Origin: a virus
Lineage: Duplodnaviria; Caudoviricetes
DNA length: 29,116 nt
IMG/VR virus record: IMGVR_UViG_3300047308_000044
Coordinates: 1 to 29,116 of that record
Direction: 5' to 3' (one strand)
Part shown: positions 2,411 through 18,341 of the stretch, piece by piece
How positions within the stretch are numbered: the first letter of the stretch is position 1
Layout of the letters: the number at the start of each line of letters is the position of its first letter
Program-made: the position numbers and the translations under genes
The notes under the pieces: generated by a model
What the model saw: only the letters and a program-made list of their open reading frames with translations
Database searches by the model: none
Told to the model about the DNA's origin: nothing

Positions 2411-3423
2411 GCACATCAGAGGCCAACTGGTATTCCAAGCAAATCAAGCGGGTGCCCATGCTTACCGCTGCGGAAGAGATCACCCTTGGCACTCAAGTAC
2501 AAGATTGGCTAAGCAACCCGGAACCATCTCCAGCGTTAGCGCGTCGTGGCAGACGGGCACAGAACCGAATGGTGGAAGCCAACTTGCGTCTAGTGGTGAC
2601 GGTAGCAAACAAGTATTTGCACAAGGTCCCAGCCAGTGATTTCCTAGACCTGATCCAAGCTGGCAATATCGGTTTGATTCGAGCGGTTGAGAAGTATGAC
2701 CCAACACGAGGTTACAAGTTTTCGACCTATGCGTACTGGTGGATACGACAAGGGATCAGTCGTCACGTTGAGACGCAAACACGTATTATCCGCCTACCAT
2801 CAAGCGCAACGCAAAAGCTATACCAGCTAGCTACGGCAACTAGACGCTTGGTTCAAGAGCTACACCGCAGCCCCACAAAAGCAGAACTTGCGGAGGCGCT
2901 GGAAGTCACCATAGAAGAGCTTGAACAGATCATCACACGCGGGCAGATGTGCCTATCGCTTGATGCATATGCCAATGGCAACGACAACCTGTCAACAATG
3001 GGTGACTTGATTGCTGACAACAGTGGGTTGGATATTGACGAGCACTTTGAACAGCTGGAGGAGATTGACGCAATTCAAAAATTGATGGGTCACCTGGCAG
3101 AACTGAACCCACGCCAGCGGTTGTTGATTGAGGGTAATTTTGGCATTGGACAACCCGTGCGCACCATCACTGATCTAGCCAAGGAATTGGGGATGAACAC
3201 TGCACAGGCATCGAAACTATTGAGGGAAGCAAAGATGCGCCTTCGTTTGCTGGCCAATACCCACCCAAAGCACACACCACCACCATTGCCAACTGCCTAT
3301 GAAGAATTAAACCAACTAGAACTGACCAGTTGCTCCTACGAAATTGCTATCAGAATTGAGACAGCAACGGCACGCAAGCCACGCAAAAAAGACCTGAGCA
3401 TTATTCAGCCTTCGTTCTGGTAG
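2407..3423 (+). CDS. RNA polymerase sigma-70 factor (RpoD/group 2 cyanobacterial type)
   Basis: Region 1.2 PMLTAAEEITLG; region 2 MVEANLRLVV, DLIQAGNIGLIRAVEKYDPTRGYKFSTYAYWWIRQGISR; region 3 RIIRLP...PTKAELAEAL...LSLD; diverged region 4. Confidence 0.95.
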   Translation: MSTSEANWYSKQIKRVPMLTAAEEITLGTQVQDWLSNPEPSPALARRGRRAQNRMVEANLRLVVTVANKYLHKVPASDFLDLIQAGNIGLIRAVEKYDPTRGYKFSTYAYWWIRQGISRHVETQTRIIRLPSSATQKLYQLATATRRLVQELHRSPTKAELAEALEVTIEELEQIITRGQMCLSLDAYANGNDNLSTMGDLIADNSGLDIDEHFEQLEEIDAIQKLMGHLAELNPRQRLLIEGNFGIGQPVRTITDLAKELGMNTAQASKLLREAKMRLRLLANTHPKHTPPPLPTAYEELNQLELTSCSYEIAIRIETATARKPRKKDLSIIQPSFW

Positions 3424-3650
3424 TCATCTTCAGCCATCATTCCTAGCTCACATTCCAACTCGGCAATGCGCTTGACGGCACCGTTGATGATCAGTGTTCG
3501 GCGGGCATCGTTTTCCAACATTTGACAGCAAAGTCTGGCTAATGCCTCTGGACGCTTCAAGCCTTCGGTTTGAATGGCACGCTTCTGCGCTTCTAAGGCC
3601 AGCTCCGCTGCCAGACTTAAATCTGGGCACATCCATTTACTCCAGGCCAT
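3405..3650 (-). CDS. hypothetical protein (81 aa, coiled-coil)
   Basis: Clean ATG ORF with helical heptad character (AVKRIAELECEL); last gene in the late-strand direction. Confidence 0.7.
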   Translation of the reverse strand: MAWSKWMCPDLSLAAELALEAQKRAIQTEGLKRPEALARLCCQMLENDARRTLIINGAVKRIAELECELGMMAEDDYQNEG

Positions 3651-3840
3651 GATGGAAGGAAACGATATTTATCAGTCTGCCGAGCCTTGCATTGAATTGA
3701 TGCAAACAGGAGACGGCCCAGTGTGGGAGGTTTCAGGGTTTGGCTACGTGACCCAGCACAAACAGCTATGGCAAGCCATGTTGAGGTTTGACTGTATCTG
3801 CCTGAGCAAGGGACTTGACCCGTCAAGGGGTTACCGCTAG
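3649..3840 (+). CDS. hypothetical protein (63 aa)
   Basis: ATG at 3649 in the frame of ORF 3574..3840; exactly fills the gap between two minus-strand genes; protein-like sequence GDGPVWEVSGFG...HKQLWQA. Confidence 0.6.
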   Translation: MMEGNDIYQSAEPCIELMQTGDGPVWEVSGFGYVTQHKQLWQAMLRFDCICLSKGLDPSRGYR

Positions 3841-4463
3841 GCGTTCCACATGGCGCCTTCTTCCCGCCGCCTGCGTGCTAAACCTGCTTCCACGTTGCTG
3901 CCTGGGTTTCTGTAGAGGTACAGAGCTGCGGGTACTTCATGCCACCGCCGATCACGCAACACGCGGGTGATGGTGTTGAACGCTGGGTTTCCGTAGAAAT
4001 GCTTACCCAGGTTGTAAGCGAACGAAGTGAGCACCCCGCGTTGGTTGGCATTCATTTCCCGCCAATGGGGGATTGTTTTTGCCATGTGTTTGTAGGTGCT
4101 TTCGACTTCATCCTTAAGGTATTGGTCAGCCTGTGCTTGGGTGATGGTGTCGCCGCGTGAGATCTTGCGGCCATTGGGATAGCGCGTTGTTCCCCAACCG
4201 ATGGTGCAAACACCGACGCCATCGTTGTACGCCGTAAGCCTGCACCCCTCATACTTTTTTATGAGTTTCAGTGCAGGACCAAGGTCGTCTTGTTTGCCTG
4301 ATTGGCTCCAGGTTTGAAACCACGGACGATCACGTCGCATTGCAACCTCATAGCCATTTGCGCTGAGGTCTTCTTCAAGCTCAGAGATTGCTGCCAGCTG
4401 ATAGGTATAGCCGCGATTGAAACGAAACAGCTGTGACAGGGTAATTGGTGCTTGGTTAGCCAT
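3837..4463 (-). CDS. endolysin, GH24 lysozyme with ~60-aa N-terminal extension
   Basis: KYEGCRLTAYNDGVGVCTIGWGTT gives the E-x8-D-x5-T triad; LTSFAYNLG and GLARRRREEGAMW motifs; ATG at 4463. Confidence 0.93.
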   Translation of the reverse strand: MANQAPITLSQLFRFNRGYTYQLAAISELEEDLSANGYEVAMRRDRPWFQTWSQSGKQDDLGPALKLIKKYEGCRLTAYNDGVGVCTIGWGTTRYPNGRKISRGDTITQAQADQYLKDEVESTYKHMAKTIPHWREMNANQRGVLTSFAYNLGKHFYGNPAFNTITRVLRDRRWHEVPAALYLYRNPGSNVEAGLARRRREEGAMWNA

Positions 4464-4662
4464 TGTCAAGCCAAGGTGCTTTGAGTTCCATTGCTCCGCC
4501 CAAATCCAGTGAATCCCCGGTTTGTAGTACAGGGTCGATTGGATGCTCGATGTAGATCGGTGCAGGCATTGGAGAAGGCTCAGGCGGCAGGCTTGCTTCG
4601 TACTGCTCGATAGCAGCAGTTACCTCCGCCTGAAAGTCAATGTCCCGCGTTACCGCTTTGGG
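4456..4662 (-). CDS. -1 frameshift extension of the holin-like protein (68 aa, acidic/Pro-rich)
   Basis: Open -1 frame from slippery C CCA AAG (4662-4656) to TAA at 4458-4456: PKAVTRDIDFQAEVTAAIEQYEASLPPEPSPMPAPIYIEHPIDPVLQTGDSLDLGGAMELKAPWLDNG; no ATG/GTG/TTG at its 5' end. Confidence 0.65.
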   Translation of the reverse strand, partial: PKAVTRDIDFQAEVTAAIEQYEASLPPEPSPMPAPIYIEHPIDPVLQTGDSLDLGGAMELKAPWLDNG

Positions 4663-4787
4663 AAAGTCAGACGAGCAACCTGAAGGATGAACTGGATAAT
4701 CCCGTTTGCCTTGAGCGGGGTGAAGGGAAGGATTTCAGAAACGGCGGTTACAACGATTGCCGCAACGGTGAGTGTGGTGGGGTCCAT
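4650..4787 (-). CDS. small holin-like membrane protein (45 aa), not in ORF track
   Basis: MDPTTLTVAAIVVTAVSEILPFTPLKANGIIQFILQVARLTFPKR: hydrophobic helix, amphipathic helix, basic end; upstream of the endolysin. Confidence 0.8.
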   Translation of the reverse strand: MDPTTLTVAAIVVTAVSEILPFTPLKANGIIQFILQVARLTFPKR

Positions 4788-4814
4788 TGGATGAATGGGA
4801 CTGATGAACTCAGG

Positions 4815-5048
4815 CTACTTATGCATTTCAAGCGCTCTAACACGAGTATCAAGCTGGGCTAGCTGAGCCTTGGCATCGTTCTTTAGCTCTTCAATGGCCT
4901 GCGCGGTGGACTGCACCGTTGCCTCGATCCTGGCAGCCTGAATCTGCATTGATACAAGCAACGCTCCAATGGCAAACATGCCAGCCGCTATGGCAGCCGG
5001 TAGCGCAGAGGTGAACACCCCAGAGATTGTTTTGGGGCCTTCGTCCAC
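4815..5048 (-). CDS. single-TM plus coiled-coil lysis-cassette protein (holin- or i-spanin-like)
   Basis: Hydrophobic ALPAAIAAGMFAIGALLVSM followed by heptads ending LDTRVRALE; position in the lysis cassette. Confidence 0.7.
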   Translation of the reverse strand: MDEGPKTISGVFTSALPAAIAAGMFAIGALLVSMQIQAARIEATVQSTAQAIEELKNDAKAQLAQLDTRVRALEMHK

Positions 5049-5069
5049 CGGGCGGAAGTCGCTAAGAGC

Positions 5070-5075
5070 ATTCTA
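5070..5075 (-). promoter_or_regulatory. putative -10 element TAGAAT for lysis cassette
   Basis: TAnnnT 21 nt upstream of GTG 5048. Confidence 0.5.
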
Positions 5076-5079
5076 GGGA

Positions 5080-5211
5080 TTAGCCTTGCCCGCGATATTT
5101 CTTCTTGCCTTTGCGTTGTGGGCGTGAATGTAACCCGTGGCCAATGGAAGTGGTCTTAGGTTTTGCGACCTTGCGGAGCGTGCCAGTACCGACCTTTGCT
5201 TTAACCGCCAT
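5080..5211 (-). CDS. small basic protein ending KKYRGQG (43 aa), not in ORF track
   Basis: MAVKAKVGTGTLRKVAKPKTTSIGHGLHSRPQRKGKKKYRGQG; ATG overlaps the upstream TGA. Confidence 0.8.
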   Translation of the reverse strand: MAVKAKVGTGTLRKVAKPKTTSIGHGLHSRPQRKGKKKYRGQG

Positions 5212-5468
5212 CAGTAGGGGGAGTCGCCGAGGATTGCTGGCCAGGCTGCCTTGAGTCCCTCCACGTCGGTAGCGGCTGCAATATCGGGATCAGCGGTCAC
5301 ATCACGTAAGGCTTGCTTTTCGGCGGCAATCTCAGCCTGCGTAGCGGTATCAGCCTGCTCGACAGCACGCATGAACTGAACGTCTAAAGCGGCGAGCTGA
5401 GGGGCACGGGCTTCACGCATGAAGTCCTTGTGAATTTCGCGGGCTTTATCCAGGTTGATGGTGATCAT
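5211..5468 (-). CDS. tail fibre assembly chaperone-like protein
   Basis: MREARAPQLAALDVQFMRAVE...KQALRDVT...LKAAWP, a Tfa-like pattern downstream of a fibre gene. Confidence 0.75.
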   Translation of the reverse strand: MITINLDKAREIHKDFMREARAPQLAALDVQFMRAVEQADTATQAEIAAEKQALRDVTADPDIAAATDVEGLKAAWPAILGDSPY

Positions 5469-5713
5469 TGGTTGGCCTCCTTGGCTGCAAAGTAGGCATC
5501 GGCACCGATACCATATCCATCGGGTGCGCTGAAATCTGCCTCCCAGGCGTTGAAGAAAACGTGACTTTCGGGGAGATCTTCGTATTCCATGTAACGGTAG
5601 GGAACGCCTGCAGGGACATCCTTTTGGGCTACATCCGCAAGGGGCAGGGCGCCTGTCGGGGTTACTAACGCGATGCTGCCATTGTCTTGGGGGTAGATGA
5701 TGACGGTCGCCAT
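5465..5713 (-). CDS. tail fibre-associated protein
   Basis: ATG at 5713; KDVPAGVPY...DLP...FFNAW motif typical of genes that follow small distal fibres. Confidence 0.7.
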   Translation of the reverse strand: MATVIIYPQDNGSIALVTPTGALPLADVAQKDVPAGVPYRYMEYEDLPESHVFFNAWEADFSAPDGYGIGADAYFAAKEANQ

Positions 5714-17976: not shown

Positions 17977-18341
17977 CCCCCTTTGAGCGAATCAAAGAAC
18001 GCCTCAACAATTGAGGCCGACACAGCAGGAAGATCTAAAACCTGTTCCTTGGCCTTCTCTGAATACGGCACTTCACCGCCTTCTCCATCCTCGATAGCAG
18101 ACCAGCCAACCAAGATTTCAGAGGCAATTTCAAGATCGGTGATCATGCCTGCGGTGTCTTCGTCGTTTTGAATGGCACGCAGCCGAGCCATCACAGACTC
18201 CTGGATCTCAACAATTCGGGTCTGGGTAGGACGCTTGAACTCCGCATCAAAGGTTTGTTTGACAAATCGCCCACCATCGACCGGGATCTCAAAAGAAACC
18301 GGCCAGGTGTAGGTGTCGCTTTGCTTTAAGACAAAAGCCAT
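17961..18341 (-). CDS. tail assembly chaperone G
   Basis: Between tail tube and tape measure; ends at the slippery GGGGG AAAAAAAA G run. Confidence 0.88.
   Translation of the reverse strand: MAFVLKQSDTYTWPVSFEIPVDGGRFVKQTFDAEFKRPTQTRIVEIQESVMARLRAIQNDEDTAGMITDLEIASEILVGWSAIEDGEGGEVPYSEKAKEQVLDLPAVSASIVEAFFDSLKGGKKRT
17968..17981 (-). other. programmed -1 ribosomal frameshift site (G/GT)
   Basis: mRNA AAA GGG GGA AAA AAA AGA ACC TGA contains G GGA AAA and A AAA AAA heptamers; the -1 frame joins the T ORF. Confidence 0.85.

Follow-up and report, generated by a model that had tools for sequence, protein, structure and literature searches.

A conserved slippery heptamer in a small membrane-protein gene of cyanophage lysis cassettes points to a second product made by -1 frameshifting

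Gene layout and the slippery site

The window, that is, the whole stretch of DNA analyzed here, is a 29-kb virus record (29,116 nt; 85% complete) that carries a head and tail module resembling that of lambda and also codes for a sigma factor and a phage lysozyme. Because the cultured-phage relatives of the two genes considered below, ORF1 and ORF2, are Synechococcus phages or cyanophages, with the exception of one uncultured marine phage record, the host is presumably a picocyanobacterium. The lysis cassette lies on the minus strand and comprises, in order, a 77-aa one-helix coiled-coil protein, ORF1, ORF2 (in the -1 frame) and the endolysin. The endolysin (3837-4463), a phage lysozyme, matches PF00959 and phrog_28234 (E = 2e-68). 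The 77-aa protein (4815-5048), upstream of ORF1, has a single hydrophobic segment as well as a tail of coiled-coil-like character and is a candidate for a second holin-like or accessory component; across the family, too, ORF1 is usually preceded by a small protein of similar build, drawn from one of several families. A very basic 43-aa ORF without a family match (5211-5080, minus strand) is located just upstream of the cassette, and a promoter and terminator scan of positions 3400-5600 returned nothing above chance. Elsewhere in the window, a single 710-aa ORF (24497-22365, minus strand) combines the prohead protease domain with that of the major capsid protein.

ORF1 (4650-4787, minus strand) occupies the apparent gap before the endolysin gene, in which the sequence-only reading had recognized a 45-aa membrane protein. 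This zero-frame product matches phrog_22542, a family of unknown function (E = 5e-6); it has a hydrophobic helix bearing an invariant Ser-Glu, then a turn (Pro-x-Lys-x-Asn) and an amphipathic helix, and its C-terminus is basic. The gene ends in ACT TTC CCA AAG CGG TAA and contains, at 4662-4656, the X XXY YYZ heptamer C CCA AAG, correctly phased and one codon ahead of the stop. From the heptamer, the -1 frame (ORF2, 4456-4662, minus strand) runs for 68 codons, with no ATG, GTG or TTG at its 5' end, to a TAA at 4458-4456 that overlaps the endolysin start; the overlap with the endolysin ATG at 4463 amounts to 8 nt (ATGGCTAA). The frame is open from 4734, and its sole internal start is an ATG at 4569. 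ORF2 encodes a helix, a Pro-rich linker and a conserved QTG-x-S-x-x-LGG...PW motif. Slippage at the heptamer would join 44 residues of ORF1 to 66 residues of ORF2, yielding a predicted protein of 110 aa; the short form has a net charge of +2 and the new tail one of -10. All these elements, from which a programmed -1 frameshift had been proposed, were found in place.

Heptamers occur in frame 13 times in the 9203 codon positions of the 35 window genes, which corresponds to a chance of ~0.011 per 8-codon gene end. In only 2 of the 35 genes is a heptamer close to the stop followed by a -1 frame that stays open over a long distance, namely, in ORF1 and in the tail-assembly-chaperone gene. The latter (18341-17632, minus strand) ends in G GGA AAA / A AAA AAA from position 17979, and its -1 frame continues for 115 open codons up to the tape measure gene; this ordinary G/GT frameshift provides an internal control. 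A G/GT identity of ORF1 itself was ruled out by its position before the endolysin and by the phage's own G/GT pair at 18341-17632. Judging from the nature of the site, transcriptional slippage is unlikely as well, since C CCA AAG includes no long homopolymer.

Comparative survey of ORF1 loci

Related loci were gathered with ORF1, ORF2 and endolysin queries, with no more than the 80 best of each scan being kept, and do not constitute a random sample. Scanning 597 sources with profile HMMs yielded 529 ORF1 hits, 7 of which were dropped because the locus contained no stop, or less than 330 nt downstream and no ORF2. The 522 judged hits collapse to 297 distinct loci; 7 cultured-phage loci are additional to this count. 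ORF2 follows ORF1 in 223 of the 297 loci and is absent from the other 74, that is, it is dispensable. Wherever present, it is in the -1 frame, which is uninterrupted from the heptamer to ORF2 (223/223 for both).

A canonical heptamer within the last 8 codons of ORF1 was found in 218 of the 223 loci with ORF2, compared with 3 of the 74 without it. The association held when only loci not found through ORF2 were considered (139/141 versus 3/72) and after clustering of the ORF1 DNA at 80% (60/64 versus 2/21) or 70% identity (20/23 versus 2/15). Thus, the expectation that homologues would retain a slippery site together with an open -1 frame was borne out. The 218 heptamers fall into four classes, CCCAAAG (94), AAAAAAG (119), CCCAAAA (4) and GGGAAAG (1, in phage S-EIVl), and lie at a distance of 0, 1 or 3 codons from the stop of ORF1. 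In a review of recoding, C_CCA_AAG, A_AAA_AAG and G_GGA_AAG constitute the three heptamers listed as highly shift-prone in Escherichia coli (PMC5009743).

Codon usage at the site was strongly biased. Where ORF1 ends in Pro-Lys, the proline codon is CCA in 102 of 104 loci with ORF2 versus 4 of 67 without it, and other ORF1 prolines of the ORF2-containing loci are encoded by CCA in 78 of 435 cases. In the 119 loci of the A_AAA_AAG class, the preceding codon specifies 7 different residues through 8 codons (GGA, GCA, CCA, ACA, GTA, AGA, TCA and ATA), every one of which ends in A; among all ORF1 ends of the form X-AAA-AAG, this preceding A is present in 119 of 120. These patterns indicate that the constraint on the site acts on nucleotides rather than amino acids, the motif being held at synonymous positions. 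A position-wise conservation table was left unused, being circular at the heptamer columns.

The 5 ORF2-containing loci without a heptamer fit the frameshift model: in 3, a GTG start is located at the stop of ORF1 (L027, L277 and L472, comprising phage S-CBS2, a Cyanobium locus and L472 itself, the relatives of which, L475 and L476, retain the heptamer), and 2 keep A_AAG (L212 and L424). In L467, scored as ORF2-negative, the heptamer is kept and is followed by a 34-codon -1 frame, the end of which resembles some ORF2 ends and which may be an ORF2 remnant. In three other loci (L014, L016 and L038), a different ORF of 49 aa occupies the ORF2 slot before the endolysin; it has an ATG of its own, which overlaps the ORF1 stop. 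On the best tree of ORF1 DNA with the site removed, the ORF2 state changed 9-10 times. A sign test for correlated evolution was not significant (p = 0.25): supported branches provided just 4 independent pairs, none of them in the opposite direction. The test was underpowered, as 120 alignment columns are too few.

The proposal also required that the stretch upstream of the internal ATG be under purifying selection, and this was observed. Across 79 disjoint pairs, dN/dS was 0.11 for the 5' part of ORF2, 0.25 for its 3' part and 0.09 for ORF1; for the 27 window codons ahead of the internal ATG, comparison with the two nearest relatives gave pS of 0.39-0.41 and pN of 0.10-0.15. Judged by these comparisons, ORF2 is a coding sequence from the shift site onward. 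Neither does ORF2 have a conserved start of its own, in agreement with the sequence-only reading: 185 of the 223 loci carry no ATG, GTG or TTG from -20 to +10 codons around the site, and 58 carry no CTG either. The spacer between the heptamer and the ORF2 core ranges from 8 to 39 codons and is always in frame (194/223 loci in which the core was located).

Neither a Shine-Dalgarno-like stimulatory signal nor a hairpin is conserved across the family. Folding 3' of the site is weak and variable, exceeding that of shuffled sequences by a small margin (mean z of -1.0 versus 0.0), the window's own 3' region gains nothing over shuffled sequence (z = +0.56), and no covarying pair was detected in the window's subfamily. 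The efficiency of the shift may therefore be low.

Cultured phages, hosts and stand-alone ORF2

The ORF1-ORF2 element is carried by the cultured siphoviruses S-CBS1, S-CBS3 and KBS-S-2A, all with A_AAA_AAG, and also by S-EIVl, in which the unannotated ORF1 (L028, 2190-2330) terminates in G GGA AAG. In the T7-like phages S-B28 and 7B11-B (Autographiviridae), A_AAA_AAG abuts the ORF1 stop; the -1 frame that follows lacks a start, extends over 64 and 54 codons, respectively, and bears a weak likeness to ORF2 (10 and 4 bits). These -1 frames are unannotated (L604, 1027-1170; L606, 1027-1200). The gene after ORF2 in S-B28 encodes the terminase small subunit rather than an endolysin; the S-B28 gene matching the terminase small subunit is annotated as 'core protein'. 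In GenBank, the genes of the element are hypothetical, and ORF2 is either truncated (S-CBS3 gp22) or absent (KBS-S-2A, S-B28 and 7B11-B).

In P60 (L608, 856-1086), S-CBP1 (L607, 838-1035) and B3 (L030, 2435-2656), the ORF1 homologue lacks a heptamer and carries a charged tail that is fixed in frame, those of the first two belonging to phrog_15106; the ORF1 of a MedDCM phage has neither heptamer nor tail. In S-CRES3 (L029, after 2596), a GC-rich hairpin and a T run separate ORF1 from an ORF2-like gene with its own ATG. In S-EIVl, a nearby 102-aa gene is annotated as 'lysozyme', although we could not discern by eye any resemblance to lysozyme families.

Among 81 genomes from the family of Cyanobium genome G001, the pattern of tRNA-Lys(UUU) was found in 80 and that of tRNA-Lys(CUU) in 6; these counts are pattern-based, with 4 loci checked using ARAGORN, and the genomes are possibly incomplete. 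The shiftiness of A_AAG has been tied to the presence of a single tRNA-Lys in the same review (PMC5009743).

ORF2 also exists as a stand-alone gene. In phages of ~80 kb, a version that starts at an ATG of its own and has a Trp-rich N-terminus of amphipathic character lies between an exonuclease gene and a primase-like gene (L358-L406, L004-L012, L275 and L276); in L010, a neighboring ORF is one that we take to be hli-like. Scanning 5 records of such phages turned up ORF1 in none of the 5. Being optional in the cassette and free-standing elsewhere, the ORF2 tail resembles a binding module that is portable and that ORF1 would anchor in the membrane at a set ratio.

A possible role in lysis and its alternatives

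In several respects, ORF1 is holin-like: judged from hydropathy only, it has one hydrophobic helix (family median KD of 2.1) and a second, amphipathic one, its end is basic, and just one of the helices is hydrophobic enough to span the membrane. The same endolysin family lies directly downstream in 265 of the 297 loci. In the T7-like phages S-B28, 7B11-B and P60, ORF1 follows tail-fibre or lysozyme genes and precedes the terminase small subunit gene, a slot that we take to be the position of holin 17.5 in the T7 gene order. T7 17.5 has been identified as a holin (PMC8365609).

Family searches gave less. ORF1 matched nothing in Pfam or NCBIfam; in PHROGs it matched families of unknown function, with 1 of 44 members hitting a holin PHROG (E = 0.01). 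A PDB sequence search produced nothing useful (one match at E = 0.2). ORF2 had no useful match in the Atlas; the Atlas clusters compared for holin similarity are hypothetical. A spanin identity was rejected, there being no lipobox and no cysteine in the window ORF1 or ORF2; by this criterion, lipobox-like patterns are present in 6 of 297 ORF1 sequences. The sequence-only reading had proposed one gene for a holin and an antiholin: its programmed frameshift is supported by the survey, whereas family matches do not back the holin:antiholin pair or a lysis-timing device, a reading for which the suggestion comes from gene order alone. ORF2 is, moreover, lacking from 74 of the 297 cassettes and occurs as an independent gene beyond lysis modules. 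Hence, the conclusions differ in strength. A programmed -1 frameshift in the ORF1 gene, widely conserved across cyanophages, is strongly indicated and leaves us in little doubt. A role of ORF1 in lysis appears probable, and that the 110-aa form is specifically an antiholin is possible but less likely than not. We assign a probability of about 0.6 to the combined reading, namely, that the conserved heptamer very likely leads to a 110-residue form being made in addition to the membrane protein of 45 residues and that both probably act in host lysis.

The most serious competitor, to which we attach roughly the weight of a minority view, accepts the frameshift but casts the two forms as a virion, superinfection-exclusion or host-interaction pair encoded at the end of the late operon. 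It would account for the failure of ORF1 to match a holin family convincingly, for the presence of stand-alone ORF2, with its amphipathic N-terminus, in replication modules where ORF1 was not found, and for S-EIVl, S-CBS2 and S-CRES3, in which the ORF1/ORF2 pair is not adjacent to the lysin; the holin could then be the one-helix protein upstream. It sits poorly with the predominance of a directly adjacent endolysin, the pre-terminase slot of ORF1 in T7-like cyanophages and two database proteins (see below) in which ORF2 is in frame with the endolysin. Far less probable is that ORF2 is made as a separate protein, without fusion, by termination and re-initiation at a codon overlapping the ORF1 stop. 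That codon is CTG in 126, GTG in 14 and TTG in 10 of the 223 loci (150/223 in total), so re-initiation may contribute, and the three loci with GTG and no heptamer, as well as the stand-alone ORF2 genes, are in keeping with it. However, the overlapping codon is the non-start CTA, TTA or GTA in the remaining 73 loci, including the window (GTA), start codons are missing altogether, CTG included, near the site in the 58 loci noted above, and re-initiation leaves unexplained why three different heptamers should be fixed synonymously at 0, 1 or 3 codons from the stop.

It is improbable, even more so than re-initiation, that the shift serves mainly to feed a few ribosomes to the endolysin start and thereby dose the endolysin below the membrane protein, the ORF2 peptide being secondary. 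The endolysin start overlaps the end of ORF2 in all 148 scorable loci (lying 159-261 nt beyond the ORF1 stop in the commonest classes), and no obvious Shine-Dalgarno sequence precedes the window's start at 4463. Yet, ORF2 is under purifying selection at the protein level, persists as a stand-alone gene and is kept in S-B28, where a terminase subunit comes next. Moreover, where ORF2 is absent, the endolysin start abuts the ORF1 stop (62/63 loci); overlap is thus equally the rule there and may be a side effect, so that coupling of endolysin translation to shifted ribosomes, which had been suggested for the window, is possible and compatible with the overlap, which is not diagnostic of it. Finally, we give almost no credence to an assembly error or a decayed fused gene. 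Of 14 longer ORF1 homologues, 2 (P0008 and P0013) do continue in frame into ORF2, but the junctions in the 8-member P0013 cluster are scrambled and differ among members, as sequencing indels would produce, and these in-frame database proteins are likely indel errors. For the window itself, a 757-nt contig from another study covers 4193-4949 with 36 substitutions and 0 gaps, and no indel is listed across the site in any of 4 runs (run X1, possibly the window's own source, was not counted). The possibility that a single-base assembly indel had created the offset is countered further by its recurrence in all 223 loci with both ORFs and by the cultured phages, which agree.

Returning to the preferred reading, a frameshifted product acting in lysis, the following sequence of events can be envisaged. 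While CCA AAG is occupied by tRNA-Pro and tRNA-Lys, re-pairing on CCC AAA would take place in a minority of ribosomes, aided by the decoding of AAG by tRNA-Lys(UUU) alone in most of the likely hosts. The 45-aa form would be the major product, a holin-like membrane component oligomerizing through its Ser-Glu helix. Since the membrane part is common to both forms, the 110-aa protein would co-assemble with the short one, at a fixed minority ratio. By the positive-inside rule, a basic C-terminus resides on the cytoplasmic side of the membrane; the tail added to ORF1 would accordingly be displayed in the cytoplasm. There, this mostly acidic extension would bind a partner through its conserved C-terminal motif and tune lysis, although acidity is not universal (net charge of family ORF2 tails: median -3, range -11 to +4). 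Overall, the G/GT logic would have been carried over to a membrane protein.

The predicted arrangement has much in common with lambda G/GT, where an X XXY YYZ heptamer likewise lies shortly ahead of the short gene's stop and two products, short and C-terminally extended, have a common N-terminus; in lambda and other long-tailed phages, as at the ORF1 site, position is conserved and the motif variable (PMC5009743). In contrast to G/GT, a soluble chaperone encoded before the tape measure gene, ORF1 is a small membrane protein of the lysis cassette, and the element is found in T7-like phages as well; furthermore, the window has its separate G/GT site at 17979. The closest anatomical analogy is alphavirus 6K/TF, in which a small viral membrane protein has its C-terminus swapped for a hydrophilic one by a -1 frameshift (PMC5009743). 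However, 6K/TF derives from a eukaryotic RNA virus polyprotein, and the analogy is functional only, with no homology implied.

Among lysis systems, lambda S105/S107 is a holin/antiholin pair produced from dual starts. Like S105/S107, ORF1 is predicted to be one lysis membrane gene with two products at a set ratio; unlike them, its forms would differ at the C-terminus by recoding and not at the N-terminus by start choice. In T4, the antiholin RI is encoded separately (PMC11413866). ORF1 shares no sequence similarity with S105/S107 or RI, and inhibition by the 110-aa form is hypothetical. The cassette further recalls, by description, mycobacteriophage LysF1a/LysF1b, two small membrane-protein genes beside the endolysin, one of which encodes a lone helix at the N-terminus; that phage has a different host envelope, and the abstract of the report is silent on frameshifting (PMC13056207). 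In phage MS2, frameshifting or termination has been linked to expression of the overlapping lysis gene, and a later study, by its title, ascribes activation to coat-gene termination (PMC10885494, PMC5009743). Unlike ORF1/ORF2, MS2 is a single-stranded RNA phage system and yields no fusion product.

The mechanism is thus a known one, and its use, recoding in a membrane-protein gene of the lysis cassette, is new. Conserved frameshifting in double-stranded DNA phages has been known chiefly for tail chaperones and some structural genes; here, the setting would be a widespread membrane-protein gene of cyanophage lysis cassettes, across tail types. A literature search, from which subscription journals were mostly outside the scope, retrieved no report of frameshifting in the ORF1 gene or in any holin gene. 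More speculatively, siphoviruses and T7-like podoviruses of picocyanobacteria might share an undescribed holin family with a regulator made from the same gene by -1 frameshifting, a generalization that we consider attractive but tentative. If true, it would represent a third route to a holin/regulator pair, the other two being dual starts and separate genes. The timing of lysis would then be set by the slip rate, which could respond to the host tRNA-Lys supply and would also meter ribosomes to the endolysin.

These considerations bear on the timing of lysis by Synechococcus phages, which is poorly known and involves genes annotated as 'hypothetical'. The idea is directly testable because cultured phage-host pairs carry the site (S-CBS1 and S-CBS3, as well as KBS-S-2A and 7B11-B on WH7803), and the family supplies natural controls in the form of ORF2-less loci, loci in which a GTG start replaces the heptamer and homologues whose tail is fixed in frame.

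In the two database proteins referred to above, P0017 and P0020 (431 and 432 aa; from different sources), ORF2 is in frame with the endolysin, a configuration that could be real or due to indel errors and that was found in 0 of the 223 loci with ORF1 and ORF2. If the fusions are real and ORF1 precedes them, slippage would yield a membrane-tethered endolysin.
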